Source: Candidatus Kaiserbacteria bacterium
GTDB taxonomy: Bacteria; Patescibacteriota; Minisyncoccia; Phycocordibacterales; UBA918
Length of the DNA stretch: 39,870 nucleotides
Assembly: GCA_024653575.1 (NCBI GenBank)
Contig: JANLIJ010000156.1
Location: forward strand, 1 to 39,870
Reading direction: 5' to 3'
A program made the translations under genes and the position numbers. Positions 1-31,839 of this stretch are shown here, piece by piece. Under the pieces are notes generated by a model, which saw nothing but the letters and a program-made list of their open reading frames with translations, had not been told where the DNA came from and did not search any database. Position 1 is the first letter of the stretch. The number at the start of each line of letters is the position of its first letter.

Positions 1-78
1 CTAAAGAAAATTTCTCTAATAAACCCTTCATCTTGGAGGGTTTATTAGTTCTAGCCAAAGTGACCCCTAGTGAGAATT
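1..78 (+). repeat. Cassette-junction repeat, copy A (3' half only; the window starts inside it)
   Basis: CTAAAGAAAA is followed by a variable hairpin (16-27 CTAATAAACCCT / 37-48 AGGGTTTATTAG). Then comes conserved TTCTAGCCAAAGTGACCCCTAGTGAGAATT, near-identical to 2669-2698. Confidence 0.6.
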
Positions 79-101
79 AATTTTGGTATACTTTCTTAAT
101 T

Positions 102-644
102 ATGAAAATATTTTTAGTAAGGCACGGGGAGACGACAGGCGATGTGGAAGACAGATATGGGGGAAGCTACGATGACCACCTTACTGAGTTAGGAAAGGAA
201 CAGCTTGCCGTAACGGCGAATAATTTAGTCGGCAAAGGCATTGAAATTATTTTCGTCAGCCCTTTAATTAGAGCATGGGAAAGTGCCGAAATCATCAAGC
301 TCAAAACAGGGTGTCCTGTTGAGATTGTGAATGGGCTTGAGGAGAGGGGTTACGGAGTACTCTCTGGTCTTACGAAGGCAGAAGCTTTGGAGAAATACCC
401 TGAAGTGGTTGAAGCACACAAGAACCCCTTAAACACTGACCCTGAAGGGGAAAGTTATGATGATTTTAAAAACAGAGTTTTAGAGACGTTTCAAAAAATA
501 ACCCAAAAGGAATACAGTGCAATAGCGGTTGTATCTCACGGTGGTCCGATTAAGCAGGTACTTGCTCACTTAGGGAAAAGTATTCCTGAAAAGATTGGTG
601 ACGGAGGGATTATTGAAGTTAACAAATGGTGCACTCGTGAGTAG
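102..644 (+). CDS. Histidine phosphatase family protein (phosphoglycerate mutase-like)
   Basis: N-terminal LVRHGET (RHG catalytic motif) and distal VVSHGGPI motif. TGgTATACT extended -10 at 84-92, 9 nt before the ATG. No SD. Confidence 0.85.
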   Translation: MKIFLVRHGETTGDVEDRYGGSYDDHLTELGKEQLAVTANNLVGKGIEIIFVSPLIRAWESAEIIKLKTGCPVEIVNGLEERGYGVLSGLTKAEALEKYPEVVEAHKNPLNTDPEGESYDDFKNRVLETFQKITQKEYSAIAVVSHGGPIKQVLAHLGKSIPEKIGDGGIIEVNKWCTRE

Positions 645-860
645 GGTAGAATGTTGGAATATAAATACTCGAATCACCCAAACGCTCAAATATAGTTCTG
701 ACATCTCTATACAGAGACTGTACAGGTTGTCGCTCTGACGAGCTGGCAACCTCTTGCAGAATGGGTCCCGATCCCATTCCTCACTCCACGACGACGCACA
801 ATTTTTAGAGGTATATTTTACAAGGGTTTTCTAGACACCATACCGAGAAGCTCGAACTGA
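642..860 (+). repeat. Cassette-junction repeat, copy B (expanded version)
   Basis: TAGGGTAGA..GGAATATAAATACTCG..CTCAAATATAGTTCTGACATCTC aligns with copies C, D and E. It has an internal extra segment with a hairpin GAATGGG/CCCATTC. It ends with CCACGACGACGCAC and a degenerate TTCTAGAC tail. Confidence 0.6.
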
Positions 861-866
861 GTAGTT

Positions 867-875
867 TGTTATAAT
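867..875 (+). promoter_or_regulatory. Extended -10 promoter TGtTATAAT, 6 nt upstream of the ATG at 882 (leaderless-type arrangement)
   Basis: Perfect TGnTATAAT. No SD between it and the start codon. Confidence 0.55.
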
Positions 876-881
876 GCTCAG

Positions 882-1844
882 ATGGAAGCTGTTCACACAA
901 AAAATATAGATTTCTTGGAAGAGTATCTTACTAACCAACAATTTGATTGGGTTAATTACGACTTTGAAATTGATATTTCCTACTTCACTAGCGGTGGTGG
1001 TACTCACCTTTATTTAATCAAAAACGGAAAAGACAGATTTTTGGCAAGAATCAATTTTTATCCAGGTAAAAATGAATGGGGAGTAAAAAAGACAGAGTTT
1101 GAAACGCTCAAAGCAATTGAGGTGCTTTGTATAGCACCAAAAGCATTTGCTTTGTGTACTGACAACTCACTAGGGCAAGATTTCACTATTGTTGAGTATG
1201 TCGAGGGTGAGAATGTAAAACGATTTGAAGATGAGAGAATAAAAATGCTGGCCAATGATTTACACAAGCTACACGATTTTAAAATTCCTGACTTGGATAA
1301 TAATTCAGTTTCTTACATCTGCGACATCTACAATGAATTTTCTCAAGGTACAGACAAGCAGATAGAGCAATATGAATTTGATGGTAGGGGAAAAGTTGCT
1401 CCTTTATACAACGAAATAAAAAATGATTTAGGAATTTGGTTTAACGGATTAACTATCTTTTCTGACAGCAAAAATATCTGCCTTTGTCATGCCGATTTAA
1501 AATCAGAGAACATTTTGGTGACTTCAACTGGAATTAAACTTATTGATTGGGAGTGTGCTGGTACTGATATCCCAGAAACAGATATTGGAAGGTTATTTTC
1601 TGGCTGTGAGTTTACCAATGAACAACAACACTTGTTTCTGTCTGAATATTATCAAACGCAACCTAACGACATTATTCTGAATAAGATTTTGGCTGTTAGA
1701 ACAGTGTTAGATTTCTTCCGTATTATTGAAGATTATTGTATTCATAAAAGAAAAATTTTGGATGCATCAAGTATGCTGTCTGACCTTCAAAAATTTAAAT
1801 CTACATTTAACCAAACAAGAAATACCTTAAGCCAACAGTCCTAG
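882..1844 (+). CDS. Phosphotransferase family kinase (aminoglycoside phosphotransferase / choline kinase-like fold)
   Basis: Brenner-type catalytic motif CHADLKSENILV followed by LIDWECAG. Confidence 0.8.
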   Translation: MEAVHTKNIDFLEEYLTNQQFDWVNYDFEIDISYFTSGGGTHLYLIKNGKDRFLARINFYPGKNEWGVKKTEFETLKAIEVLCIAPKAFALCTDNSLGQDFTIVEYVEGENVKRFEDERIKMLANDLHKLHDFKIPDLDNNSVSYICDIYNEFSQGTDKQIEQYEFDGRGKVAPLYNEIKNDLGIWFNGLTIFSDSKNICLCHADLKSENILVTSTGIKLIDWECAGTDIPETDIGRLFSGCEFTNEQQHLFLSEYYQTQPNDIILNKILAVRTVLDFFRIIEDYCIHKRKILDASSMLSDLQKFKSTFNQTRNTLSQQS

Positions 1845-1892
1845 ATCAGGAATATAAATACTCGCATCATTCTATTTCTTACGCTACTCAAT
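1842..1892 (+). repeat. Cassette-junction repeat, copy C (5' part only, truncated)
   Basis: TAGATCAGGAATATAAATACTCGCATCATTCTATTTCTTACGCTACTCAA matches the first ~50 nt of copies B and D. It then diverges into the higB promoter. Confidence 0.55.
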
Positions 1893-1922
1893 TTTGCATT
1901 TTCATGATGATATACTGCGTGT

Positions 1923-2228
1923 ATGCAGATTGTTGTACAAAATTCTGCTCTGAAACTACTTGAGTCACTGACTCCTTCCGAGCTTGCGAAAGCAATTCGA
2001 ACCATTGACCTGCTTGAAGAATTTGGTCATGAGCTTGGGTTACCGCATAGTCGGCACATGCAGGGCGGACTGCTCGAGTTGCGGGTTCGAGGTAAACGTG
2101 AGATACGAATCTTCTATTGTTTTCATAAAAATAAAGCAGTATTGCTCCACGCATTTATCAAAAAGACAGAGCGGGCTCCCACAAAAGAACTACAACGTGC
2201 TCATCTGGCTAAGGACACCTTGCAGTAA
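1923..2228 (+). CDS. higB: Type II toxin, HigB / phage Gp49-like (RelE/ParE superfamily)
   Basis: LELRVRGKREIRIFYCFHKNKAVLLHAFIKKTERAPTKEL is typical of Gp49-like toxins. An XRE antitoxin follows. TGaTATACT at 1908-1916 lies 6 nt before the ATG. Confidence 0.8.
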   Translation: MQIVVQNSALKLLESLTPSELAKAIRTIDLLEEFGHELGLPHSRHMQGGLLELRVRGKREIRIFYCFHKNKAVLLHAFIKKTERAPTKELQRAHLAKDTLQ

Positions 2229-2248
2229 TATAACTTATAAGTTATATT
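2227..2248. promoter_or_regulatory. Perfect 22 bp palindrome AATATAACTTATAAGTTATATT between higB and higA
   Basis: Verified self-complementary by reverse-complementing. It overlaps the higB stop codon and a TATATT -10-like box located 6 nt before the higA ATG. Confidence 0.5.
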
Positions 2249-2254
2249 GTACGT

Positions 2255-2530
2255 ATGGCAACTCCATACAAAAAATTCAAAATAAGCGCGCTTGCAAATA
2301 AGGAGGTAAAGGTAGCATATGATGCGCTTGCTCCAGAATATGAGGTAGTGCGAACCATCATAAAGTACCGTTTGAAGCGTGGGTGGTCACAGACTGAGCT
2401 TGCTGAGGCAGTAGGCAGTCGTCAACCAGTGATTTCTCGTCTCGAACGTGGAGAAGGCAATCCCTCTTTACAGACACTGCATAAAATAGCAAATGCACTC
2501 AACCTCTCCTTACAGGTGTCGATGAAGTAG
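2255..2530 (+). CDS. higA: XRE-family HTH antitoxin (HigA-like)
   Basis: RGWSQTELAEAVGSRQPVISRLERGEGNPSLQTLHKIANAL is a canonical Cro/C1 HTH. It lies immediately downstream of the toxin. Confidence 0.85.
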   Translation: MATPYKKFKISALANKEVKVAYDALAPEYEVVRTIIKYRLKRGWSQTELAEAVGSRQPVISRLERGEGNPSLQTLHKIANALNLSLQVSMK

Positions 2531-2542
2531 TACGTTCAGCAG

Positions 2543-2698
2543 TAGGGTAAAAGCTAGGAATATAAATCGTTACATCATTTATTCTCTCAAACACAGTTCT
2601 AACGTCCTCTACGACGTCGCCCTAAAGAGAAAAGAACCAAAATGTCCCCTAAACAGGGGACATTTTGGTTCTAGCCAAACGGTGCCCTAATGGGAATT
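2543..2698 (+). repeat. Cassette-junction repeat, copy D (most complete)
   Basis: The 5' part reads TAGGGTAAAAGCTAGGAATATAAATCG..CTCAAACACAGTTCTAACGTCCTCTACGACGTCGCCCTAAAGAGAAA. A perfect 17 bp hairpin follows at 2633-2672. The 3' part reads (G)TTCTAGCCAAACGGTGCCCTAATGGGAATT. Confidence 0.65.
2633..2672 (+). terminator. Perfect 17 bp stem-loop (AGAACCAAAATGTCCCC-taaaca-GGGGACATTTTGGTTCT)
   Basis: Seen directly. Located after higA and embedded in repeat copy D. Confidence 0.55.
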
Positions 2699-2747
2699 TC
2701 GGGGTGGTATTATTATGTGAGCTTTTAATATTAACAAACCCATCACT

Positions 2748-2978
2748 ATGTCATTGGAAGGAATACCAAAACAGAATATTAAATTAAATGAAGAAGAGCC
2801 CCCACAAGTCGTTGGAGACAAAGCTAATCGGGAATTTCGTGACGAGTTAGATGAGTTTACTTGGCTTCGCGATACGTTGGCGTCTGGAGGTGTGCTTAAA
2901 GATGAAGAACTTAAAAGGATGGAGGAACTGGCGGGCATGTTTGAAAGACTCCATAATCGTATCGGTTTAGGTGAGTAA
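2748..2978 (+). CDS. Hypothetical small acidic protein
   Basis: 76 aa E/K/L-rich helical-looking ORF. The antisense ORF 2687-2938 is Ser-rich and looks like a shadow. Followed by repeat copy E. Confidence 0.35.
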   Translation: MSLEGIPKQNIKLNEEEPPQVVGDKANREFRDELDEFTWLRDTLASGGVLKDEELKRMEELAGMFERLHNRIGLGE

Positions 2979-3024
2979 AAAAAGAATATTATTGGCTTTA
3001 TTTAAACTATAATAATTCATGGAT

Positions 3025-3160
3025 TAGGGTAACCTAGGCCATGATTCTCGGCTGAAACTCTGGAATGTAGATACTTGTATCCCTCAACCTTTCAAACACA
3101 GTTTTAACATCCCACACAACGTCGCCCTCGTAGTAAAAATCCCCTCACGGGGATTTTTAG
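3025..3160 (+). repeat. Cassette-junction repeat, copy E
   Basis: TAGGGTAACC..GGAATGTAGATACTTG..TTCAAACACAGTTTTAACATCCCACACAACGTCGCCCT, then hairpin 3135-3158 AAAAATCCCC-tcac-GGGGATTTTT. It lacks the TTCTAGCC tail. Confidence 0.6.
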
Positions 3161-3195
3161 GTAGTATGTCGAGACGCAGAAAACTCTCGCCAATC

Positions 3196-3702
3196 CTAGT
3201 CCGTCAAAACTTCAGTTGTAGCGGGGAGGGTCTTCTTAATTATTTCGAGATCGGCCTGTGAGTAGTCGTTTCCTCGTAAATTGAGAATCTTGAGATTGGA
3301 TAGGTTTCCGAGTTCGTAGGGAAGCCCTGTTATCTGATTGTTGGAAAGATTGAGCTCCTCAAGATTTTTCAATTGACCAATTTCAGCAGGAACTCCCGAA
3401 AAGTGATTATTGCTTAAATTGAGTACTTTCAAATTTTGTAGCTGGCGCACTTCAGCTTGCAAAGAGCCACCAAGATTGTTGTTTGATAGATCCAGTTTTT
3501 GAATATCCGTTTTATCAAAGACATAATCTGGAATCTTTTTCAGTTCTTGACCACTCAAATCCAACACACCGTTGTTTGCATCATTTCCAGAGACTACCGA
3601 GGACACTTCTCCTGCAATACTCCCATCCTCTTGTTTGAACATAACAACCACAACAACAACCACCACAAAGACCACCGCAACTGCGACAAATATTTTTATC
3701 AT
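3196..3702 (-). CDS. Membrane-anchored leucine-rich repeat (LRR) protein
   Basis: N-terminal poly-Val TM segment (VAVVFVVVVVVVVMF). Then about 5 LRR units of ~23 aa (LxxLxLSNNxLxGxLPxEIGQLxNL). Confidence 0.85.
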   Translation of the reverse strand: MIKIFVAVAVVFVVVVVVVVMFKQEDGSIAGEVSSVVSGNDANNGVLDLSGQELKKIPDYVFDKTDIQKLDLSNNNLGGSLQAEVRQLQNLKVLNLSNNHFSGVPAEIGQLKNLEELNLSNNQITGLPYELGNLSNLKILNLRGNDYSQADLEIIKKTLPATTEVLTD

Positions 3703-3772
3703 ACTCTTTATGCCGTCTTGACCCCTCTTTTGTTACAGGTGCAAAATATAGTGTGTGCATACAAATAAAAAA

Positions 3773-3796
3773 GGGACGAGTGCAATGACTCGTCCC
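3773..3796 (-). terminator. Rho-independent terminator for the minus-strand pair 4437->3815
   Basis: GGGACGAGT / ACTCGTCCC stem. An A-run on the plus strand gives a T-run on the minus strand directly after the stem. Confidence 0.7.
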
Positions 3797-3814
3797 AGGT
3801 TCAATACCCGTTAG

Positions 3815-4024
3815 TTACTCGGGGAGGTCCTTCATGATGTTCACGAGCGTCTCCTCTGCTTTATTGAGGCTTGACGTCAGCTCATTGAGTGACGGTGCAA
3901 CCGCGGTCTGAAGTCGGTGCCTCTCATAAGCCTGACCCGCGTCGAATGCCTGTGCCAGAAGTTCTTCAACCTTCACCGTGTTAACTTGCGACGCCAAACT
4001 GTCTATAATGCTCCGCTTTTTCAT
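3815..4024 (-). CDS. Hypothetical small protein (start moved to MKKRS)
   Basis: AAGGAG SD (4030-4035) lies 5 nt upstream of the ATG at 4024. This start removes the overlap with the upstream gene. Confidence 0.5.
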   Translation of the reverse strand: MKKRSIIDSLASQVNTVKVEELLAQAFDAGQAYERHRLQTAVAPSLNELTSSLNKAEETLVNIMKDLPE

Positions 4025-4035
4025 TTTCGCTCCTT

Positions 4036-4437
4036 TTATCTGACACACAGTTTCTTGGGCGAGTCGACGGCGAGTCGAAATGCTTCAGATTCGGAGTGTG
4101 TCCTCCCACGCTCGTCCCACCAGGTGAAACTGGTAACGAACGACACGGTTTTGCCGGTCGTCCGTACACAGTACTTCCCCTTTTCTGTGTACGTCTTGAA
4201 CCCCTTTACCTTCTCAAGACTGCGTGGGGTGTCGTGGTCCTCCGGCCAGCAGGGGATGAAGTCGAGGAACTCCTTCCGGGTGTGCTTCATTGAAATACAC
4301 CCTTTTCCGTTTAGGGAACGAGGGTTCTTTTGGAACGCCTCATTCTCCTCGTAGTACCCTTGTTCTTCCATCCCGGCATGCGCAGAGGCAGAGAAAAACG
4401 AGAACAGGGTGAAAAGTACAGCAATACTCTTGTTCAT
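4036..4437 (-). CDS. Hypothetical secreted protein
   Basis: Signal-peptide-like N-terminus MNKSIAVLFTLFSFFSASAHA. AAGGAGG SD 5 nt upstream. Locally higher GC than the flanks. Confidence 0.6.
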   Translation of the reverse strand: MNKSIAVLFTLFSFFSASAHAGMEEQGYYEENEAFQKNPRSLNGKGCISMKHTRKEFLDFIPCWPEDHDTPRSLEKVKGFKTYTEKGKYCVRTTGKTVSFVTSFTWWDERGRTHSESEAFRLAVDSPKKLCVR

Positions 4438-4624
4438 GATGCCCTCCTTGGGCTGTGGTTAACTATTTACTATTATAACAGATTAACCTTATGAAGTCAA
4501 GGGTTCAGAAATGGCTTATAATAGGGCCAATTCGGTGAAGAAAAGTCACTATCTAAATTTTCTGTATGTGTAGATGTGATATCCTTAAATAATCTATTTT
4601 TATTAAATCAATGTGTGATCCTTT

Positions 4625-5401
4625 ATGAAATTTGAAAAATCAGAACTCTTTGGAAAAAGTGATGTCAGAAATGAACAAAGTGAGCGTCTTTTAAAAAATC
4701 CAGACCGTGACTGGCTTCTTAAGCGTACAGAGTATTTTTTTCGAAACTTAATTAAGGAGAGAAATATTGATATTGGGGAGGAAGAATTGGATAGTATTGA
4801 TTATCTATTTTCCAGCAATAATTATAAAGGGCTGGTGACGGTCTATGGCAACACAATTCGACAAAGAACTGATGGAGGGTATGAGACTGCTCACAAGGAT
4901 GATTCTAAAGAAATAAAACCCTTTAAGGATTTGACTGCACAAGAAACAGACGAATTTTTGCATAGGTATAAATTCGATGCACTTATACCACTCTGGGGTG
5001 AGGCAAGTGAGATGGCAGATAAAGAAGGGGATTCTCAGACAAGTCCTGAGTCAACCCCACCATCACTCCCCCCTGACGCGAGATATTTGCAAAAGGATGA
5101 AACCTTGTCACAAACCATGGGAACAGCTTTTTATAGTGAGAAACTCACTGATGGTCGACACAACCATTATCCTAAGATTGGAGCATTCGGTTTGTCTACA
5201 AGATACGGGAGAATAAATGGAGTTCTTATCTGGTGTGACGGCGAGTCTGCAATATTTGACACTCCTCAGGGGAAACTAAGGATTCGATTCACAGATGTGG
5301 TTTCCCCAAGTGGTAAAACTTATGGTGAACTTGTTGATGAAGAAAGGGATGAGGAGGTGCACCGAGAAAAAAATACTAAACTTAGATATAGGTCACATTG
5401 A
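4625..5401 (+). CDS. Hypothetical protein
   Basis: 258 aa AT-rich ORF with no competing frame and no motif I recognise. Confidence 0.5.
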   Translation: MKFEKSELFGKSDVRNEQSERLLKNPDRDWLLKRTEYFFRNLIKERNIDIGEEELDSIDYLFSSNNYKGLVTVYGNTIRQRTDGGYETAHKDDSKEIKPFKDLTAQETDEFLHRYKFDALIPLWGEASEMADKEGDSQTSPESTPPSLPPDARYLQKDETLSQTMGTAFYSEKLTDGRHNHYPKIGAFGLSTRYGRINGVLIWCDGESAIFDTPQGKLRIRFTDVVSPSGKTYGELVDEERDEEVHREKNTKLRYRSH

Positions 5402-5430
5402 TTTTTCTAAAAAACACACATTACAACCCA

Positions 5431-5480
5431 TCTCTAAAACACAGATCTGACATACTCTGTTGTGGTGCTGTACGGGTGAG
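5431..5480 (+). repeat. Cassette-junction repeat, copy F (partial, core only)
   Basis: TCTCTAAAACACAGATCTGACATACTC matches the CTCAAACACAGTTCTRACRTC core of copies B, D and E. Confidence 0.4.
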
Positions 5481-5538
5481 TTTTTGAGATATCAAATAAT
5501 CATTTGCACCAGTATCTTTTCGCCAGTACCATGAGTGT

Positions 5539-6042
5539 ATGAAAACCATCACCGTACACGACAGCATGCAGGATGGGTATACCTATATATGCACGGAGCC
5601 AGTGGGGAAGGGATTTCATTCTGATTTTAAGCCGGAGCTCTCCCCAAAGGAAATGCTCGAACTCGGCGTTTTTGGCGGGCTTTACATGACGGACTGCAGA
5701 AACGAGTTTCCAAAGGAGTGGTTTAAGAATGCGAAACTCTCACCTGACGGGAAGCGCCACAAGGAACTTAATTATTTCAAAGTGAATGCAAGTCAGTCGC
5801 TCGCCATATGGCAAAAGAATGGGTGGATACATAAAGATGACCCACGAGGGTGGTTTCAGTGGTATTGCCGGTATTACATGGGACGGAGGTATGAGGATGA
5901 TGAGCGACAAATACGGCGATGGAAGATGATCGGAAGGCACATTGCGCAAGTCATGCACAATTGCATGCGGGGAGACCTCACCTGTCGGCCGAGACAGCGA
6001 CAAGCGCTTCTTCATTGGGCGATGGACAGTCGGAAGATTTGA
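5539..6042 (+). CDS. Conserved hypothetical protein (W/R/Y-rich motif GWFQWYCRYYMGRR..DDERQIRRW)
   Basis: 167 aa ORF with a globular-looking composition. I cannot name the family with confidence. Confidence 0.55.
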   Translation: MKTITVHDSMQDGYTYICTEPVGKGFHSDFKPELSPKEMLELGVFGGLYMTDCRNEFPKEWFKNAKLSPDGKRHKELNYFKVNASQSLAIWQKNGWIHKDDPRGWFQWYCRYYMGRRYEDDERQIRRWKMIGRHIAQVMHNCMRGDLTCRPRQRQALLHWAMDSRKI

Positions 6043-6078
6043 TACAAAAATTTTGGGGTGTTGTATACTGGAGGGAAT

Positions 6079-6174
6079 ATGGATACTGCAGACATCATCG
6101 GTGGAGTCATTGGCATCTTTCTCATTGGTGCGGGGTTTGGATACTACGCGACACGACTTATCTTAGGAATCTAG
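6079..6174 (+). CDS. Candidate 31 aa single-TM small peptide (MDTADIIGGVIGIFLIGAGFGYYATRLILGI)
   Basis: Not in the ORF track because it is under 60 aa. GGAGGG at 6070-6075 lies 3 nt before the ATG. The sequence is hydrophobic and Gly-rich. Its 3' end overlaps the convergent ZIP gene by 12 nt. Confidence 0.3.
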   Translation: MDTADIIGGVIGIFLIGAGFGYYATRLILGI

Positions 6175-6939
6175 ACGAGTACTCGAGACTTCATCATGTG
6201 GGAGGAGTGTGTGCGTATAGGTAATAAGTGCGCCAATGATAGCGACACCAAGAATGGTGATGAGAAATGTTCTCTTAAAGTGCTCACGGTGTGAATGACG
6301 AAGTTCGGGGATGAAGTCGGTCGCAGCGATGTAGAGAAGATTTCCTGCAGCGATGCCTGTGAGGAGGAATGCATAGCCCGCGAAAGACTGTGCAAAAAAG
6401 TAGGTGAGGAGAACACCGACGAGAATGCTCGACGCTGACGCGAAATTATAGATGAGCGCTTTGCCTCGTGTGCACCCCGCATGAATGAGGATGCTATATT
6501 CTGCAATTTCTTGTGGAATCTCGTGAAGCGCAATACCGACGGCAGTAAGCGTGCCAACGAATGGATTTACCATGAAGGCTGACGCAATAACGATGCCATC
6601 GGCAACATTATGGACGCTGTCACCAATGAGGAGTTTGTGCGCTCCGTTATGCATACAGGTGTCATGGTCATCAACGTGGTGATGGTGGAATGTCTCAAGG
6701 ATGTGTGAGAGGAGATAAAATCCGAGGAATCCCACAAGAACAACGAGTGGTCCCCATTCGTGTGAAGATTCAAATGTTTCAGGAAGGAGCTCGAAGAAGA
6801 CTACTCCAAGGAATATTCCAATTGCGAGGGGGACGATGTGTGTATGAATTTTCTCCAGTATTTTTGAATTACTAAAGAAGACCCCTCCGATGAGGGAAAG
6901 GGACATAATGCAGAGCGCACTCAAAATAGCTTCAAACAT
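6163..6939 (-). CDS. ZIP family divalent metal transporter
   Basis: His-rich loop HHHHVDDHD, GDSVHNVADGIVIASAF and ALHEIPQEIAEY motifs. Confidence 0.9.
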   Translation of the reverse strand: MFEAILSALCIMSLSLIGGVFFSNSKILEKIHTHIVPLAIGIFLGVVFFELLPETFESSHEWGPLVVLVGFLGFYLLSHILETFHHHHVDDHDTCMHNGAHKLLIGDSVHNVADGIVIASAFMVNPFVGTLTAVGIALHEIPQEIAEYSILIHAGCTRGKALIYNFASASSILVGVLLTYFFAQSFAGYAFLLTGIAAGNLLYIAATDFIPELRHSHREHFKRTFLITILGVAIIGALITYTHTLLPHDEVSSTRLDS

Positions 6940-6960
6940 GATAATTACAAGTGTATACTC

Positions 6961-8070
6961 ATGCGTATGAAATTTCTAGTCAGCCTTTGTTTTTTCCTAA
7001 CCCCGTTTCTTCTCAATGCACAAGAGGTGTATCAAGAACTTCAAGAGACCGTTCGAGCTGAGGTCTTACAAATTCTCCATGAAGAAGTGCGAGATATTAT
7101 CGGTACCGATACGAATGCACTTGTACAAGAGGTTCGCGTCCGTATAAAGGAAGGAGTTCGAGAAGGAGATGTCACTATTTTTGAGAATGATCTCACTGAG
7201 CTCAATGTCGGTGATTCTATATATGTAAATAGGCTCGTTGATATTGATGGGACGGAATATTATGCTTTCAAGGATGTCGACAGGCGCTTTGCGCTCCTAA
7301 GTCTTTTTGCATGTTTTGCATTCGTACTTATTCTCATCTCTGGATTTCATGGATTTCGTGCCCTCCTCAGTCTTCTTGTGAGTATTGTGGGAATATTTTT
7401 TGTACTCGTTCCGCTCCTCCTCCATGGGTATGATCCTGTTTTCTCAAGTATTATCGTCGCAGGCCTTATTCTTGCGCTTGTACTTTTCTTAACACACGGA
7501 TTCCACTCGCGTACCACTATTGCTTTCCTCGGGACATTTGGTGCAGTCGTTATCACTGGAGTGGTCGCGCTTGTCTGGACACATCTCGCACACTTTACAG
7601 GGCTTAGTTCCGATGAAGCCATTTATCTTAACTTTAGTACAAAAGGAGCGTTGGATTTTGGGGGACTCCTCCTCGGGAGTATTATTATTGGTATCCTCGG
7701 AATATTGGATGACGTCGCCATTACGCAAGCATCGGTCGTTGCCGAGCTCAAGCGTGCAGACATGAATCTTCGGGGGCGGGAATTATATACACGTGCGCTC
7801 CGGGTGGGGCGTGACCACATTGGTTCATTGGTGAATACACTTGCACTTGCATACATTGGAGCGTCGCTCCCGCTCATCCTCCTCTTTAGTGCGGCAGGAT
7901 CGGACATTGTCCTCTCGCTCAATCAGGAACTTGTCGCTGTTGAGCTTGTGCGAATTTTCGTGGGGAGTATTGGGCTCATCCTTGCCGTCCCCATTACAAC
8001 GCTTATTGCTGTGTGGTGGTACGAGCGGTACACTATTCCTCTGGAATGTAATCATGTTCATATACATTAG
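6961..8070 (+). CDS. YibE/F family membrane protein (start possibly 6967, MKF..)
   Basis: N-terminal exported domain plus multiple TM helices. LGILDDVAITQASVVAEL motif. TATACT at 6954-6959 lies 7 nt before the second ATG. Confidence 0.7.
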   Translation: MRMKFLVSLCFFLTPFLLNAQEVYQELQETVRAEVLQILHEEVRDIIGTDTNALVQEVRVRIKEGVREGDVTIFENDLTELNVGDSIYVNRLVDIDGTEYYAFKDVDRRFALLSLFACFAFVLILISGFHGFRALLSLLVSIVGIFFVLVPLLLHGYDPVFSSIIVAGLILALVLFLTHGFHSRTTIAFLGTFGAVVITGVVALVWTHLAHFTGLSSDEAIYLNFSTKGALDFGGLLLGSIIIGILGILDDVAITQASVVAELKRADMNLRGRELYTRALRVGRDHIGSLVNTLALAYIGASLPLILLFSAAGSDIVLSLNQELVAVELVRIFVGSIGLILAVPITTLIAVWWYERYTIPLECNHVHIH

Positions 8071-8112
8071 TGTGGTGTTCAAGGTTCATTATTGTGAAGA
8101 TATTTATTTTGT

Positions 8113-8487
8113 ATGAAATTACTTGAAGAGTTCAAAGCGTTCGCAATGCGGGGGAATGTTATCGACCTCGCGGTTGCTGTAATCATCGGCGGGGCATTTG
8201 GGAAAATCGTCTCATCGCTCGTCGATACAGTAATCATGCCGACTATCGGAATTCTACTCGGAGGAATCAATTTTACTGGATGGGCATTTGTGGTGGGGGA
8301 CTCGACGATTGCATACGGGAAATTTATTCAAGCGATTGTTGACTTCACCATAATCTCATTTGTCATCTTTATGACACTTCGAACATTGAGTCGGTTTGAG
8401 AAGAAGAAAGAGGCTGAGTTGAAGCAAGACGAGCCAAGTGAAGAAGTACTCTTGCTTCGAGAAATTCGAGATAGTTTGAGGAAGTAG
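8113..8487 (+). CDS. mscL: Large-conductance mechanosensitive channel
   Basis: EFKAFAMRGNVIDLAVAVIIGGAFGKIVSSLV is a canonical MscL N-terminus. 124 aa. Confidence 0.95.
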   Translation: MKLLEEFKAFAMRGNVIDLAVAVIIGGAFGKIVSSLVDTVIMPTIGILLGGINFTGWAFVVGDSTIAYGKFIQAIVDFTIISFVIFMTLRTLSRFEKKKEAELKQDEPSEEVLLLREIRDSLRK

Positions 8488-8510
8488 TAGTTATCAAGTT
8501 CGAGTGAAAA

Positions 8511-8541
8511 ACCGGCACGCCCGAAGGGCGTGCCGGTTTTT
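8511..8541 (+). terminator. Rho-independent terminator after mscL
   Basis: ACCGGCACGCC / GGCGTGCCGGT stem followed by TTTT. Confidence 0.85.
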
Positions 8542-8744
8542 CTCATTGGCAAGCAATGTATTAGCTATATGCGCACTCCGAAACACATCCACGACCACTT
8601 CAAGTCTTGCGGTGGCCCGTAAGATGTTGCTATCCACAGCACCATATTTAGGGAATCATCTTCACACTTCAAAAAATCGAGATTTTATATAGACCACCGC
8701 CCGCATAGTCCATTTTGAGCCATAATTCATAATTTTTTTCCGCG

Positions 8745-8753
8745 TGGTATTAT
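8745..8753 (+). promoter_or_regulatory. Candidate extended -10 (TGgTATTAT) giving a ~130 nt nrdA leader
   Basis: Followed by hairpin ACACACG(8761-8767)/CGTGTGT(8779-8785). No ORF lies between it and the nrdA ATG. Confidence 0.35.
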
Positions 8754-8891
8754 TCATGGAACACACGCACTTGCTCTTCGTGTGTCGGCTCCTAGACACA
8801 TGTCGTTTTTCAAGAACCACTATTTGGGTGGCGTGTTTGGAGGCCTCTCTAAAAATTGGATGTAGAAATTTATACATAACACCATCGCTCT

Positions 8892-11786
8892 ATGATCACC
8901 ACAATTATTAAACGCAATGGCACATCAGTACCGTTTGACCCAACGAAGATTGTTATCGTCATGAAGAAGGCCTTTGCTGCAGAGCAGGTGCCTGTTGATG
9001 ATGCAATACTTGAACAAATGACGGGACGCGTTGTTGCCAACCTTGCAACGATGTGTGAGGGGAAGGAAAACTGTCCCACAGTAGAGCAGGTACAGGACCT
9101 TGTGGAGAATACACTCATGGAGCGTGGGTATTTTGGTGTTGCGAAGGCGTACATTCTGTATCGATTTAAGCAGAGTGAAGAGCGAAAACAGGAAGTGGTG
9201 AAGGAGATTGAAGAACAGCGCCTCACGATTGAACGTTCCGATGGAAGTATCGAACAATTTTCACGCGAGAAGATGCGAGCATACCTCATTGAGTTTACGC
9301 TCGGGTATGAGAAGGAAATAGACCTTGATACGATTGTTGCACAGGTTGAGCGTGAAGTGTACGACGGCATCAAGACTGTTGAGATGGCACGACTCGTTAC
9401 CTCGGTACTTCGTTCACGTATTGAAGAGGATCCTGCGTACTCGGTCGTCGCATCGCGTCAGCTTGCACGCCGTATTGCAGATGAGGCTGTTGGTAATTTT
9501 AATAATATCCCAGAAGCAGAGCGGGTGAGTGCGTATCGGAATGCATTCGTCCGAAACATCAAACACGGAGTCGAAGCAAAGAAGTACGACGCAACAATGC
9601 TCTCGTTCAATCTCGAGAAACTTGCTGAGGCAATTCAGATTGAGCGGGATGACCTCTTTAAGTATATTGGTATTGAGACACTCAATGACCGCTACTTTGT
9701 TCGTGTCGAAGGGAGACTCATTGAGACGCCTCAGATGATGTGGATGCGTATTGCAATGGGACTCGCACTCAATGAGAAGGAGAAGGAGGTTCGCGCGATT
9801 GAGTTCTACAACATTATGTCGCTCATGCGCTTTATTCCGTCGACACCGACACTCTTCCATGCGGGAACACCACACCCACAACTCTCGTCGTGTTACCTCA
9901 ACGTTGTTGAGGACGATCTCGGTCACATCTTCAAGGTGTACGGTGACAATGCGATGCTCTCAAAGTGGGCAGGGGGTATTGGTACGGCGTGGAGCAAGCT
10001 TCGTGGTATGGGAGCGGAGATTAAGGCTGCGGGCATTACCTCGCAGGGGGTGATCCCATTCCTCAAGATTGCAAACGACGTCACCGTCGCCATCAATCGT
10101 TCAGGTCGTCGCCGTGGAGCCACTGCGGTGTATATGGAAAACTGGCACATTGATTTTGAAGATTTTATTGAGCTTCGCAAGAATACCGGAGATGAGCGAC
10201 GACGTACACACGATATGAACACCGCTGCGTGGGTCTCAGATGCCTTCATGAAGCGTGTGCGCGACGACGGGCAATGGACACTCCTCTCACCAGATGAAGC
10301 TGTCGACCTCACTGAGACATTTGGAAAGAAATTCGAAGAGCTCTATGAGAAGTATGAGGAGATGGCAGATCGAGGAGAAATCAAACTCTTCAAACGAGTG
10401 AAGGCCCGCGATCTCTGGAAGCGAATGCTCATCATGCTCTTTGAGACAGGGCACCCATGGATTACCTTCAAGGACCCATCGAACGTACGTTCACCACAGG
10501 ACCACGTTGGTGTCGTCCATAGCTCAAACCTCTGTACTGAAATCACGCTCAACACCTCTGCTGAAGAAACTGCGGTGTGTAACCTTGGGTCTATCAATTA
10601 TCCAAAGCACATCATTAACGGTGTCTTTGATAAGGAAATGGTGAAGGTGACCATCACGACGGCGATGCGTATGCTCGACAATGTTATCGACCTCAACTTT
10701 TACCCAACAATCGAAGCGCGTAATTCAAACATGAAGCATCGCCCTGTAGGGCTCGGTATTATGGGCTTCCAAGATGCGCTCTACATGCTCAATATTCCAT
10801 TTGCTTCGGAAGAGTGTGCAGATTTCTCGGACAGTTCAATGGAGATTATTGCGTACCACACAATTCTCGCATCGACCGATCTCGCTCGAGAGCGTGGTGC
10901 ATACCAGAGCTTCAAGGGGTCCAAGTGGGATCGGGGTATTTTCCCTGTCGATACGATTGCACTCCTCGAAGAGGAGCGGGGTATCCCAACAGGCATCGAT
11001 TGTTCTGGGAAACTTGATTGGAGCGTGGTTCGCGAAGCGGTCAAACAGTATGGTATGCGCAACAGCAACACTATGGCCATTGCGCCGACCGCGACAATCG
11101 CAAACATCGCCGGTTCTGTACCAGGGAACGAGCCTATCTATAAGAACATCTACGTGAAGTCGAATATTTCTGGAGACTTCGTTATTGTGAACTCATTCCT
11201 CGTAGAAGACTTGAAAAAGATTGGCCTTTGGGACAGTGAGATGCTCGGTGCTATTAAGTACAACGACGGAAGCCTCAAAGATATTCCGAGTGTCCCCGTT
11301 GAACTCAAGCAGAAGTACAAAGAGACATTTGAAATTGACATGCGTTGGATTATGAAAGCGGGTGCGCGACGAGGGAAGTGGATTGATCAGTCACAGTCAC
11401 TCAACATCTTCTTTAGTGGAACTTCAGGAAAGGAACTTTCAGAGCTCTATACCTATGCCTGGGAAATTGGACTCAAGACTACGTATTACCTCAGGTCGCT
11501 CGCTGCAACACAGGTTGAGAAGTCAACGGTAGGTACTGCAGGGACGCACCTACGAAAAGATGAAGCAAGTAACACAGGGGGGACCTCAATGCCTATGGAG
11601 CAGGTTGCTATGGAGACGATTATTGCAAGTGTCACCGGTACGGTAAGCGAGGCAATTCCATCACCGATTGCAACTCCGTCGCCATTTACACAGGAGGTAC
11701 TCGAAGAAAAAGTGCCCGTTGCAGAAGTAAAACCAAAGATTAAGTTGCATGTGGCAGAGGATGCCATTTGTGAGTCGTGCCAGTAA
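8892..11786 (+). CDS. nrdA: Ribonucleoside-diphosphate reductase alpha subunit (class I), two N-terminal ATP-cone-like modules
   Basis: IIKRNGTSVPFDPTKI and TIERSDGSIEQFSREKM cone starts. Catalytic core motifs SNLCTEI and PTATIANI. C-terminal Cys pair CESC. An nrdB partner lies downstream. Confidence 0.97.
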   Translation: MITTIIKRNGTSVPFDPTKIVIVMKKAFAAEQVPVDDAILEQMTGRVVANLATMCEGKENCPTVEQVQDLVENTLMERGYFGVAKAYILYRFKQSEERKQEVVKEIEEQRLTIERSDGSIEQFSREKMRAYLIEFTLGYEKEIDLDTIVAQVEREVYDGIKTVEMARLVTSVLRSRIEEDPAYSVVASRQLARRIADEAVGNFNNIPEAERVSAYRNAFVRNIKHGVEAKKYDATMLSFNLEKLAEAIQIERDDLFKYIGIETLNDRYFVRVEGRLIETPQMMWMRIAMGLALNEKEKEVRAIEFYNIMSLMRFIPSTPTLFHAGTPHPQLSSCYLNVVEDDLGHIFKVYGDNAMLSKWAGGIGTAWSKLRGMGAEIKAAGITSQGVIPFLKIANDVTVAINRSGRRRGATAVYMENWHIDFEDFIELRKNTGDERRRTHDMNTAAWVSDAFMKRVRDDGQWTLLSPDEAVDLTETFGKKFEELYEKYEEMADRGEIKLFKRVKARDLWKRMLIMLFETGHPWITFKDPSNVRSPQDHVGVVHSSNLCTEITLNTSAEETAVCNLGSINYPKHIINGVFDKEMVKVTITTAMRMLDNVIDLNFYPTIEARNSNMKHRPVGLGIMGFQDALYMLNIPFASEECADFSDSSMEIIAYHTILASTDLARERGAYQSFKGSKWDRGIFPVDTIALLEEERGIPTGIDCSGKLDWSVVREAVKQYGMRNSNTMAIAPTATIANIAGSVPGNEPIYKNIYVKSNISGDFVIVNSFLVEDLKKIGLWDSEMLGAIKYNDGSLKDIPSVPVELKQKYKETFEIDMRWIMKAGARRGKWIDQSQSLNIFFSGTSGKELSELYTYAWEIGLKTTYYLRSLAATQVEKSTVGTAGTHLRKDEASNTGGTSMPMEQVAMETIIASVTGTVSEAIPSPIATPSPFTQEVLEEKVPVAEVKPKIKLHVAEDAICESCQ

Positions 11787-31300: not shown

Positions 31301-31839
31301 GTGAGGACGGTGATGCAGAGAGTGTACACCTCACGGCGTGGCCGAAGACAGAAACCGTTGACCCCGTGGTCATTGGGGAGATGAGTATCGTCCGAGAATT
31401 GGTGACGGTGGCACTCGAGGCTCGATCAAAGGCGAATATCAAGGTCCGACAGCCACTCGCATCACTTGCCGTGAATATTGAACTGGAGGAAGAGTATGCA
31501 CGAGTGGTGCGTGAGGAAATCAATGTGAAGCATATCTATGCAAATATCGAGATGACAGAACGTGCAACGCTTGATATGAATATTACTCCAGAACTCAAAC
31601 GCGAAGGAGATGTGCGCGAGCTCATGCGCGCGATTCAGGATGCGAGAAAGACCGCAGGACTGAGTCCACAGGACAGGGTTGTACTTACGGTGAGCGAGAC
31701 GACAAAGAACCTCATGATTGGATTTGAAAAGGAAATTATGGGAGTGGTGGGAGCTGTGGAAATAAAAGTGAGTGAAGATATGGAACGTGAGGTCCAGATT
31801 GATGGGCAGACATTCCAGTTTGGGGTTAAGAAAGTATAG
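28315..31839 (+). CDS. ileS: Isoleucine--tRNA ligase (type 2-like) carrying an internal histidine-phosphatase domain
   Basis: HIGH-type motif PHYGH, WTTTPWTLPGN editing domain, KMSKS present (GKKMSKSL). 1174 aa with an extra ~190 aa block at residues ~516-712. Confidence 0.97.
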   Translation: MSDIHNHMDSKNENTKGDVALREEAILAFWNEHNIFKKTVETPAGNAPVGDFVFYDGPPFATGTPHYGHILAGTIKDAIPRYQTMNGKRVIRKWGWDCHGLPLENIIEKRLGLSTKRDIEEMGVKQFNESARSAVMEYEHDWKEIIPRMGRFVDMEDDYKTMDSTYTESVWWVFSELNRKGFVYEGFKSMHLCPRCGTTLSNFEVNQGYKDIKDIAVFVELPLVGEGRTSLVVWTTTPWTLPGNMAAAVHNDIEYVVVEKKDEDVGEFVRFIVAKGRVQSIFEGQEYVVVKEMKGSDLVGKSYLPPFDTFKNQEFTGKENAWKIYHADYVELGEDGTGAVHIAPAYGEEDMELAKKEGIPIVHHVDTDGRFKDFVAHFAGQLVKPKDDEKAEVSHLDADIEIVKYLKEAGRLFKKENVTHSYPHCWRCDTPLLNYGTTSWFVRVTDIKDALVAENAKVSWVPEHVGTNRFGKWLEGARDWAISRQRYWGAPLPIWKNPKTGTYKIFGSLKELLTYVPKSGNTYYLMRHGESESNVAQILNSDQSVRNPLTERGRSQVSDAIPSVPQDIDFIIHSPLERTTETAHMIAQSKGILSECVQSDERLRELGMGKFEGKTSAEKDKAFQTPEAEFTISVGGSETLNQLRERVGELLYELERTHKNKKILLVSHGDPIWFLEAIAKGANIEKTLEIGKSYIKNAEVRTIEFQKLPHNDNYELDFHRPYIDEIELRDTDGEALARVPDVFDCWFESGSMPYAQKHYPFENLETFNPEKSIGYPADFIAEGLDQTRGWFYSLIVLGVALFGKSPFRHVVVNGLTLAEDGKKMSKSLQNYPDPVELADRVGADALRYYLLSSPIVRGEDLRVSEKEVLELQRKNIGRLHNVLAMYEMYADGSVTAHANSTNVLDRWIIARLNETVRDITEGYKNYELDKATRPIEGLIDDISVWYLRRSRERLKGNDVEDKNATLATLRYVLKNLALVMAPVMPFYAEHLFLSVREDGDAESVHLTAWPKTETVDPVVIGEMSIVRELVTVALEARSKANIKVRQPLASLAVNIELEEEYARVVREEINVKHIYANIEMTERATLDMNITPELKREGDVRELMRAIQDARKTAGLSPQDRVVLTVSETTKNLMIGFEKEIMGVVGAVEIKVSEDMEREVQIDGQTFQFGVKKV
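29860..30450 (+). other. Inserted histidine phosphatase (PGAM-like) domain within ileS
   Basis: YYLMRHGESESN (RHG), LTERGRSQ, DERLRE and LLVSHGDPIW (distal His). Flanked by the IleRS segments ..PLPIWKNPKTG..FGSLKELL and LDFHRPYIDEIEL..VFDCWFESGSMPYAQ. Confidence 0.85.

Follow-up and report, generated by a model that had tools for sequence, protein, structure and literature searches.

Small gene cassettes have probably accreted at the 3' end of a tRNA-His gene in this Candidatus Kaiserbacteria contig (JANLIJ010000156.1), placed there by a Patescibacteria large serine recombinase (LSR) whose gene spans the attachment site. The window, i.e. the whole 39,870-nt stretch that was analysed, holds four recombinase-less units (PGAM, APH, HigBA, and acidic ORF) and one decayed unit that is also recombinase-less. 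The initial annotation had proposed a site-specific-recombination cassette array whose junction repeats are recombination-site halves, and this proposal gains support from the joining of the conserved 5' part of the repeat, here called E, to an LSR and from its siting at tRNA-His. The features are as follows.

1, plus strand: final base of a 16-nt duplicate of the tRNA-His 3' end (CCCCAGTAGCCGCCC; L001 9888-9900 compared with tRNA-His).
2-78, plus strand: left arm of cassette 1, with spacer TAAAGAAAATTT, a hairpin at 16-48, and mini-site GTTCTAGCCAAAGTGACCCC/TAGTGAGAATT at 48-78 (repeat and hairpin search).
84-92, plus strand: extended -10-like TGGTATACT after the cassette 1 left arm.
102-644, plus strand: cargo 1, PGAM-like histidine phosphatase (Pfam His_Phos_1, 1.3e-41).
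640-799, minus strand: E copy B, LSR-tail coding remnant (..RDVRTIFERLGDSSIYIPTFYPTHECTIC, then stop; hmmsearch 9.5e-20, segment 622-780).
882-1844, plus strand: cargo 2, APH/choline-kinase-like phosphotransferase (Pfam APH 2.1e-13, Choline_kinase 2.8e-13).
1842-1892, minus strand: E copy C, truncated, distal part GGAATATAAATACTCGCATCA, coding ..DASIYIP.. (95% to copy B).
1923-2530, plus strand: cargo 3, HigB-like (Gp49) toxin at 1923-2228 and HTH_3/HigA antitoxin at 2255-2530 (Pfam 3.1e-21 and 1.4e-18).
2543-2622, minus strand: E copy D, complete, GDVVEDVRTVFERINDVTIYIPSFYPTAERTT..., ending in the core CGCCC (hmmsearch 1.3e-18, segment 2502-2621).
2623-2698, plus strand: left arm of cassette 4, with spacer TAAAGAGAA, a hairpin at 2633-2672, and mini-site GTTCTAGCCAAACGGTGCCC/TAATGGGAATT at 2668-2698.
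2748-2978, plus strand: cargo 4, acidic orphan ORF of 76 aa (ORF list).
3046-3127, minus strand: E copy E, distal end of the array, GDVVWDVKTVFERLRDTSIYIPEFQPRIMA, then stop (hmmsearch 1.5e-13, segment 3037-3144).
3123-3164, plus strand: tRNA-His 3' end and terminator hairpin (3135-3158), a 42-nt exact direct repeat (100% identity).
5434-5454, minus strand: decayed E copy F (..YVRSVF, then stop) after the orphan ORF 4625-5401 (3 mismatches; L009 flank comparison).

The repeat between unrelated genes is present where the initial annotation had placed it, and far above chance: the core CTCAAAYAYAGTTCTRACRTC occurs four times (685, 2586, 3091, and weakly 5434) against 0.01 expected, GGAATATAAATAC lies at 656, 1849, 2557, and 3062, ACGACGTCGCCCT at 2611 and 3116, and the repeat's 3' part at 48-78 and 2668-2698 (expected 0). 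Copy B is interrupted by an insertion of ~80 nt at 706-786 and has a degenerate core (CGCAC). The truncation of copy C does coincide with the toxin-antitoxin module, leaving just the distal third of the element, and the impression of a direct duplication within copy D holds up, with the 3' part GTTCTAGCC..GTGCCC/TAATGGGAATT resembling a shortened E end. The partial core reported after the 4625-5401 ORF is the decayed copy F; it marks an older cassette, and its position means that the variable island extends to at least 5480. The island continues toward a Zip gene at 6163. The window had also been said to start inside a repeat copy at 1-78; a left arm does occupy 2-78, but base 1 belongs to the tRNA-His-end copy with which a module outside the window (Z) ends, and the junction falls between positions 1 and 2.

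Pfam bears out that the cargo genes are functionally unrelated, with no family match found there for cargo 4, and they are AT-rich as described (GC 0.34-0.42 across 1-3000 versus ~0.45-0.50 deeper in the window). The hairpins at 16-48 and 2633-2672 (18 bp) are perfect, as is, by sequence reading, that at 3135-3158. Read in the same way, a unit consists of an arm, a hairpin, a -10-like box, one or two genes, and then an intact E. On this reading the cassettes seem to come with -10-like boxes and hairpins of their own, to which the terminator-pattern scan lent no support: 25-40 and 2633-2672 fit the pattern, matches to which are not enriched relative to shuffles.

A 47-nt pattern taken from E matches 55 loci, which come from Patescibacteria species genomes. 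The genes between tRNA-His and E are mostly genome-specific, and the flanks are syntenic. A second assembly breaks at the repeats. Local tandem duplication, with the repeats as 3'-UTR remnants, was rejected as virtually impossible: the repeats do stand close behind stop codons, but the flanking genes are unrelated and E accompanies other genes in the 55 species-genome loci.

What had been described as the 5' part of the repeat is a minus-strand coding remnant; E as an RNA structure or a palindromic site was rejected. On structural covariation, a question raised in the initial annotation, RNAalifold gave 0 consensus pairs among 41 copies. The minus-strand frame encodes G(A/D)VVEDVRTVFER.ND.TIYIP..., and the entropies at codon positions 1, 2, and 3, taken only at positions left free by the search pattern, are 0.58, 0.67, and 1.16. 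Synonymous changes account for 39% of codon differences in this frame, compared with 4.5-8% in the remaining minus frames; the sole forward frame in phase with the coding frame carries conserved stops, and the coding signature spans all of E. Against the tail profile, three copies in the window score 1e-13 to 1e-19 (hmmsearch). Several copies, among them copy D (TAG on the minus strand), lack a start and are immediately preceded by a stop, so that translation in place does not explain their coding-level conservation. It is very improbable that E functions where it stands, as a minus-strand gene (for a 30-45-aa peptide, e.g. antitoxin-like or leader) or as an antisense or 3'-UTR regulator of the cargo. 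The coding type of conservation would suit such a role, as would L060, where the E ORF has an ATG start and overlaps a PemK/MazF toxin gene start by ATGA, and L030, L035, and L054, where an NYN nuclease gene lies behind E in the same orientation; however, of 60 tallied copies only 20 have a possible start (TTG, ATG, or GTG) before the conserved block, TGG and TTG stand before it in 12 copies each, some copies directly follow a stop, the N-terminal extensions are mutually unrelated, and no Pfam or NCBIfam match was found for the E peptide.

Protein comparisons show the E peptide to be the C-terminal tail of an LSR. A tail-profile search of 1.84 billion proteins returned 285 matches, the best 150 of which are 26-184 aa long with the motif at the C-terminus or within ~10 residues of it. 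Three proteins (P0072, P0175, P0135) fuse the E tail to a coiled-coil region, homologues of which (P0171, P0172, P0174) end in WGGQRESNPY, i.e. in tRNA antisense. In L067 a Resolvase + Recombinase + Zn_ribbon_recom gene runs on into this coiled-coil region, which overlaps tRNA-His; in L069 an intact 504-aa LSR ends ..RSAW/GGQRESNPQ, then stop, within tRNA-His, and L070-L072 are arranged likewise. An LSR remnant in L064 (..HVAW/GAVVEEVRTVFEKRNDATIYMPDLSPLA, then stop) is contiguous with a Fic/SET cassette array, each cassette of which ends in E. The E frame takes up the LSR frame precisely at the W/G codon pair, where the tRNA-antisense tail also begins, and intact LSRs adjoin tRNA-His, tRNA-Trp, and tRNA-Glu. 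We interpret E as one arm of attP together with the LSR tail in its displaced position. Neither the window nor the 10 kb upstream nor any of the 55 E-bearing loci yielded an LSR homologue, and no E tail was found within 10 kb of intact integrated LSRs, so that a complete element with both ends was not seen; the search for a full-length LSR with an E tail found only remnants (L064, L077, P0135).

With an LSR as the linked recombinase, no intI or tyrosine recombinase, no attC-type hairpin, and 0 consensus pairs, the integron-like mechanism first suggested does not hold, whereas the accompanying remark that the sites are unlike attC does. The array shares with chromosomal integrons and CALINs its single-gene, co-oriented cassettes, often toxin-antitoxin, each ending in a recombination site, and every junction has a variable hairpin. 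Yet capture by a tyrosine IntI through folded attC hairpins at attI is contradicted, and we regard it as extremely improbable: intI and tyrosine recombinases are absent from the window, the 10 kb upstream, and the cargo genes at 24 loci; a coding remnant of a serine recombinase, conserved in sequence, forms the site, with neither an attC fold nor a consensus structure; the array is anchored at a tRNA 3' end and not at attI; and the cassettes seem to bring hairpins and -10-like boxes of their own. The stems of attC are imperfect, with extrahelical bases, whereas the junction hairpins here are perfect.

The recombinase that had been thought possible upstream of position 1 did not materialise in 10 kb of upstream contig, which shows instead the tRNA-His target. 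The tRNA-His(GTG) gene lies at L001 9632-9703, 197 nt before window position 1, and the 42-nt direct repeat, exact in both copies (tRNA 3' end with terminator; partner copy L001 9699-9740), brackets the 3.3-kb array. In 24 of the 55 loci tRNA-His precedes E on the same strand, at a distance of 0.6-5 kb. The last bases of E covary with the 3' end of the same genome's tRNA-His, the terminal CGCCC or CACCC being the same in ~18 of the 23 tRNA-His loci compared. A GTTC(G/T)A motif common to both is 22 nt away from the junction in tRNA-His but 27 nt away in E, which is the 5-bp outward displacement known for the zinc-ribbon-domain motif in attP versus attB half-sites of serine integrases (PMC3783163); the implied centre coincides with the covarying G/A. 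Few loci show clear dyad symmetry at the tRNA junction (mean 6/19, control 5.1), and the arms right of the junctions are heterogeneous. Island accretion by a tyrosine integrase (tycheposons/CIME), with E a mere attP arm and the LSR fusion incidental, is very unlikely. Such integrases classically target tRNA 3' ends, the 5-7 bp identity between tRNA end and E end is overlap-region-like, and degraded-element arrays by tRNAs are known in Prochlorococcus (10.1101/2020.12.28.424599), but a tyrosine recombinase was seen nowhere, E joins the LSR frame at W/G with a coding signature throughout, and intact LSRs sit at all three tRNA genes named above.

Under LSR-mediated accretion, the LSR ORF in the free or tandem state would cross attP and end in a ~30-35-aa tail. 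Integration into the tRNA-His 3' end, with crossover within the common block C(G/A)CCC, would split the gene: the LSR body would remain beside the tRNA, now terminating after ~9 codons of tRNA antisense, and the tail-coding DNA with the P arm of attP would end up at the insert's far end as E, the following unit opening with a hairpin, a -10-like box, and a gene of its own. The window cassettes may have been moved by such an LSR in trans, or may be leftovers of LSR-bearing elements. Canonical serine integrases recombine only attP with attB, or attL with attR given a directionality factor; this restriction does not alone yield tandem arrays, which counts against the proposal, as do the lack of LSR homologues at E-bearing loci, the failure to find a complete element or a full-length LSR with an E tail, the heterogeneous arms with little dyad symmetry, and the E copies that lack a start.

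It is possible, though we doubt it, that the array is a graveyard in which each E records a past integration of a complete LSR element whose recombinase and most other genes were later deleted, leaving immobile cassettes with no present mobilisation. LSR remnants at various stages of decay adjoin E (L064-66, L068, L077), the window has the truncated copy C and decayed copy F, many E copies are untranslatable, and serine integrases are normally unable to target attL or attR (PMC3783163). Against this, 0 of the 55 E-bearing loci have a detectable LSR fragment, the units as read are regularly built, and E is conserved at the coding level over many lineages. In addition, the cassette 1 left arm has a near-identical counterpart in L029 ahead of a different gene, and the PGAM gene of L001 has a ~90% identical relative in a different neighbourhood in L009.

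Returning to accretion by an LSR, three known systems offer comparisons. In SSV1-type Sulfolobus fuselloviruses attP lies inside the integrase ORF, and tRNA integration leaves gene pieces flanking the element; the position of attP and the splitting of the recombinase gene are alike here, but SSV1 has a tyrosine recombinase split N-terminally, whereas here a serine recombinase would be split ~30 codons before its stop and its body would gain a short tail from tRNA antisense. SCCmec and ccr-less pseudo-SCC elements of staphylococci are integrated by the LSRs CcrA/B/C at the rlmH 3' end. The likeness lies in an LSR with a single fixed target at a conserved gene's 3' end, tandem composite arrays of accessory cargo split by direct repeats, and many recombinase-less units, possibly moved in trans; here, by contrast, a tRNA gene serves as target, the host belongs to the Patescibacteria, units of one or two genes measure 0.5-1.2 kb, and the recombinase gene would cross attP and be cut on integration, giving a repeat of ~85-150 nt with recombinase codons. 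Of 937 Prochlorococcus tycheposons, 27 carry a large serine recombinase, and, as proposed here, successive tRNA-side integrations displace older elements, of which degraded remnants and repeated att fragments remain (10.1101/2020.12.28.424599). Tycheposons are nevertheless larger, with replication modules, partial-tRNA repeats, and mostly tyrosine recombinases, and a recombinase-tail repeat is not reported there (10.1101/2020.12.28.424599). For the window array the best reading is an SCCmec-like stack of LSR-less cassettes or remnants at tRNA-His, in which the newest units would insert beside the tRNA and older ones would be displaced outward.

The four plus-strand units in the first 3.2 kb of the window are each followed by one copy of the junction repeat, bearing out the initial annotation on this point:

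window 102-644, plus strand: His_Phos_1 phosphatase (unit 1)
window 882-1844, plus strand: APH/choline-kinase-like protein (unit 2)
window 1923-2530, plus strand: Gp49/HigB and HTH_3/HigA (unit 3)
window 2748-2978, plus strand: orphan 76-aa ORF (unit 4)

The repeat is non-random, its core CTCAAAYAYAGTTCTRACRTC occurring four times against 0.01 expected and its 3' part twice against none expected. The perfect hairpins described at 16-48 and 2633-2672 are present, the array is lower in GC (0.34-0.42) than deeper parts of the window, and copy C is indeed shortened, its distal third alone remaining; copy B carries an internal insertion of ~80 nt (706-786), and a match at 5434-5454 is a decayed copy. 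An insertion of 80-110 nt breaks the conserved 5' part of the repeat, here termed E, after AAC(A/C)TC at one shared point in copy B and in loci L048, L015 and L041; its ends are alike across loci (..ATACAGAGACTGTACA....CTCACTC), and it may be a small mobile insertion in its own right. The stretch from the array to the conserved Zip gene (3196-6042) holds more unconserved genes, probably older island content: on the minus strand a membrane-anchored LRR protein and two small ORFs, and on the plus strand two orphan ORFs. Outside the array the 39.9-kb window is core genome (RNR, ThyA, SHMT, aminoacyl-tRNA synthetases). The isoleucyl-tRNA synthetase ORF (28315-31839, 1174 aa) holds a complete His_Phos_1 domain within its catalytic core (residues 524-706; Pfam 6.7e-32), the domain family of the first cassette gene. 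Exact-protein look-ups of two mid-window genes gave no match.

The upstream region was read from the 221-kb parent contig, reached by exact-protein look-up, with window position 1 corresponding to position 9900 of L001, the window's own locus. The gene order there is rplS, a LAGLIDADG-like ORF, tRNA-Leu, a NUDIX gene and tRNA-His(GTG), after which comes a small unit, module Z:

L001 9632-9703: tRNA-His(GTG), upstream of the window
L001 9741-9905: module Z (~165 nt), between tRNA-His and the first cassette

The LAGLIDADG-like ORF (L001 8177-8839) is free-standing in the gap from rplS to tRNA-Leu and has only a faint Pfam match. A 42-nt stretch comprising the last tRNA-His bases and the terminator is repeated exactly at window 3123-3164, directly after the last element copy, and window position 1 is the last base of a further 16-nt copy of the tRNA-His 3' end. 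These copies mark the array as an insertion beside tRNA-His. It had been suggested that a recombinase could lie upstream; no recombinase gene is present in the whole 39.9-kb window or in the 10 kb that precede it.

Module Z starts with the reverse complement of the tRNA-His 3' end and finishes with a direct copy of it. Similar units of 140-200 nt follow tRNA-His or E in many loci (L006, L009, L014, L025, L036, L037, L043, L047 and L048 besides L001), placed after a terminator hairpin, with end copies that cover 9-18 nt of the tRNA-His 3' end of their own genome. The interior contains a hairpin whose stems covary and whose UGUAA loop is conserved, and has no Rfam match. Cassettes join the 3' end of module Z as they join the tRNA, and the window's first cassette is attached there; module Z may be an RNA, a spare target site or what rearrangement has left of att sites.

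The integron reading of the layout does not hold, since the array fails the defining features of integrons that were tested. No intI or Phage_integrase-type gene occurs in the window, in the 10 kb upstream or among the cargo ORFs of 24 related loci, which contain no recombinase of any kind. The attC site is an imperfect palindrome (R''-L''...L'-R') in which structure is conserved and sequence is not, whereas RNAalifold finds 0 consensus pairs in 41 copies of E, and conservation lies at the level of sequence and codons. Integron cassettes are promoterless and are expressed from a common Pc promoter; in this array, extended -10-like boxes can be read before genes (TGGTATACT at 84-92, TGGTATTAT near 2704) and hairpins after them, and a consensus scan found promoter- and terminator-like sites not enriched over shuffles. 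Single-strand transposition of the IS200/IS605 or IS91 kind and guidance by an IS110 bridge RNA were also rejected: the hairpins lack conservation, and transposases of these kinds were not seen.

What is conserved in E is a protein-coding frame. Its variable positions are the third codon positions of one minus-strand frame, which encodes (L/W/M)G(A/D)VVEDVRTVFER.ND.(T/S)IYIP.F.. and then a short tail up to a stop. At positions of E free of search-pattern constraint, entropy at codon positions 1, 2 and 3 is 0.58, 0.67 and 1.16; the synonymous share of codon differences is 39% in this frame, against 4.5-8% in the other minus frames, and the sole forward frame of the same phase has conserved stop codons inside. 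The conserved block starts right at the junction, the boundary between the end of E and the next cassette's left arm, and lacks a conserved start codon. Of the 60 copies tallied, 12 have TGG as the preceding codon, 12 TTG, 7 CTG and 5 ATG, and a stop directly precedes others; on these counts an independent micro-ORF starting at the junction was rejected. E thus looks like a gene end, the body of which must have lain across the junction.

Structured RNAs (tmRNA, including the permuted two-piece form, RNase P RNA, SRP RNA and 6S RNA) were rejected as accounts of E after Rfam gathering-threshold and E-value scans and ARAGORN came back empty: no Rfam family reaches threshold in the window, only tRNAs and chance-level matches appear around the array and in L036, and ARAGORN finds nothing in the element. 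The tmRNA candidate was prompted by sequence past some junctions that resembles a tmRNA 5' end, a resemblance explained by an inverted copy of the tRNA-His T-arm, in which TTCGAA is palindromic. As for a pseudo-tRNA, similarity to tRNA-His is confined to short stretches, and the coding signature is a better account.

In L060 (8001-8479) and likewise L061-L063, an ATG stands at the junction in the E-tail ORF (MGDVVEDVRTVFERRGDTSIHIPIF..), and a PemK/MazF toxin gene begins where this ORF stops, the two overlapping at ATGA, as though the remnant had been recruited as the toxin's upstream partner ORF; the tRNA-His stretch of these genomes is in inverted orientation with respect to its flanks. In protein databases the remnant appears in at least 285 'hypothetical protein' clusters of 26-184 aa with unrelated N-termini (P0001-P0170 among them). 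One of these, P0050, apparently fuses it to a terminase-like fragment, in which Pfam finds no terminase domain.

The repeat is not confined to the window. A 47-nt pattern for E, built from the three best window copies, matched 55 loci in a collection of species-representative genomes, nearly all labelled Patescibacteria (including Paceibacteria and Adler-, Kaiser-, Lloyd- and Taylorbacteria); the exceptions are three MAGs labelled Gammaproteobacteria, Bdellovibrionales and 'uncultured bacterium', and many Saccharibacteria labels are doubtful. tRNA-His lies 0.6-5 kb upstream of E on the same strand in 24 of the 55, and in ~18 of the 23 tRNA-His loci compared the final 5-7 nt of E (CGCCC or CACCC) equal the tRNA-His end of the same genome. 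The genes from tRNA-His to E are mostly peculiar to each genome, with cargo in other loci that includes Fic, NYN, PemK, RelE-like, GNAT, methyltransferase, NUDIX and patatin proteins; synteny holds in the outer flanks, which carry pseudouridine synthase-L19-tRNA-Leu at one end and Zip/YibE_F/MscL at the other. A second assembly of the same population breaks at the repeats.

The gene to which E belonged proved to be a large serine recombinase (LSR), known from related loci rather than from the window's own contig. A word-indexed search with the E peptide matched only small ORFs; an exhaustive profile search of 1.84 billion representatives returned 285 proteins that match the E tail, the ~30-codon C-terminal remnant. 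The best 150 of these are all of 26-184 aa, with the motif at the C-terminus or at most ~10 residues from it. In three of the longer matches (P0072, P0175 and P0135) the motif is joined to a coiled-coil region, and homologues of that region (P0171, P0172, P0174) terminate in ..AWGGQRESNPY, the antisense of a tRNA 3' end, the two kinds of tail parting exactly after W-G. In L067 the coiled-coil region continues a gene with Resolvase, Recombinase and Zn_ribbon_recom domains that overlaps tRNA-His on the opposite strand, and a metagenome scan found the same arrangement in L069-L072. L069 encodes an intact 504-aa LSR that ends ..RSAW-GGQRESNPQ within tRNA-His (Pfam 7e-24, 1.3e-14 and 8.4e-11 for Resolvase, Recombinase and zinc ribbon); L067 and L070 share these domains. 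In L064, L077 and P0135, LSR bodies run in frame into the E tail. In L064 an LSR remnant ending ..HVAW-GAVVEEVRTVFEKRNDATIYMPDLSPLA and a stop has its body contiguous with the E tail, and Fic and SET cassettes follow, each terminated by E. Against the tail profile, the window's three good E copies score 9.5e-20, 1.3e-18 and 1.5e-13. Scans of viral contigs for the LSR and for E gave nothing.

Relatives of the recombinase adjoin other tRNAs, namely tRNA-Trp in L073 (10001-10548; 55% identity) and tRNA-Glu in L074 (4370-4957; 36%), so the family seems to have diversified over several tRNA targets. The elements that bear a recombinase hold further genes: in L069 (about 5000-8900) a pair whose motifs, in translation, suggest type III restriction-modification, and in L070 (6955-8799) an HTH - Bro-N - ImmA/IrrE-like module right upstream of the recombinase.

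We propose that the LSR gene spans its own attP, such that integration at the tRNA-His 3' end would part the last ~30 codons and a P arm, which would become E at the distal end, from the LSR body; the body would remain beside the tRNA, with tRNA antisense supplying its last ~9 codons. The motif GTTC(G/T)A, common to the tRNA T-loop region and E, lies 22 nt from the junction in tRNA-His and 27 nt in E. This 5-bp outward shift fits serine-integrase architecture, in which the ZD motif of attP half-sites lies 5 bp further out than in attB half-sites (PMC3783163). The centre implied by this geometry is the G/A within C(G/A)CCC, which covaries between tRNA-His and E (~18 of 23 tRNA-His loci), as expected if the central dinucleotide must match. 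Together, the shift and the covarying centre are consistent with the LSR model, though not proof of it. The right-hand arms and half-sites show no clean matching pattern, and general dyad symmetry, tried as a mark of the tRNA junction as an attB-like site, is found in few loci only.

No LSR homologue is present in the window or in any of the 55 E-bearing loci, and no E occurs within 10 kb of the intact integrated LSRs; the window units would therefore be cassettes that lack a recombinase and were moved in trans, or else what stripping has left of complete LSR elements. Truncated and decayed E copies favour stripping, as does the fact that serine integrases are known to need a directionality factor before they can act on attL or attR. 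The regular build read from the units (an arm, then a hairpin, a -10-like box, one or two genes and an intact E) favours movement in trans, and the reuse of arms and cargo in differing contexts supports it indirectly: the window's PGAM gene recurs in L009 flanked by two other genes, and the first cassette's left arm is nearly unchanged in L029 ahead of a different gene.

The closest functional analogue of such cassettes is staphylococcal SCC, with its LSRs, fixed target at a gene 3' end, tandem arrays and recombinase-less units; here too tandem units (four or five in the window, three each in L054, L060 and L064) sit at the 3' end of one gene with direct repeats between them, some without a recombinase. 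The E-LSR junction is distal to the cassettes in L064, which suggests, by analogy with SCC composite islands, that new units enter on the tRNA side. Splitting of a recombinase gene by integration is paralleled by SSV1, and island growth beside tRNAs by tycheposons (10.1101/2020.12.28.424599). Our literature search found no description of this system in Patescibacteria.

A bolder reading, which we regard as improbable, is that the one-gene units form a true Patescibacteria gene-capture system run by a serine recombinase, not an integron integrase. Recombinase-less cassettes, with a circular junction of E and a B'-type arm, would insert beside a resident element at tRNA-His, and the recombinase ORF would be completed by the E tail of whichever cassette adjoins it; the enzyme would alternate between a short tRNA-encoded and a long cassette-encoded tail according to the state of the locus. 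If so, the direction of recombination could be set by the tail switch itself, with no separate directionality factor needed, and the coding-level conservation of E in cassettes unable to translate it would be explained.

The conserved 66-90 nt of the E remnant make an easy marker for such islands in metagenome-assembled genomes, where gene callers produce hundreds of spurious small 'hypothetical proteins' from it, and integrases like these LSRs, whose targets are short, defined and highly conserved, hold practical interest. Patescibacteria have tiny genomes and their gene exchange is poorly understood; our findings indicate a widespread accessory-gene hot spot beside tRNA-His (55 species-genome loci, 285 protein clusters) that holds toxin-antitoxin pairs, Fic proteins, nucleases, methyltransferases, kinases and restriction-modification genes, and link it to a family of LSRs aimed at tRNA 3' ends, whose own gene would be cut and re-joined by the reaction that it catalyzes.
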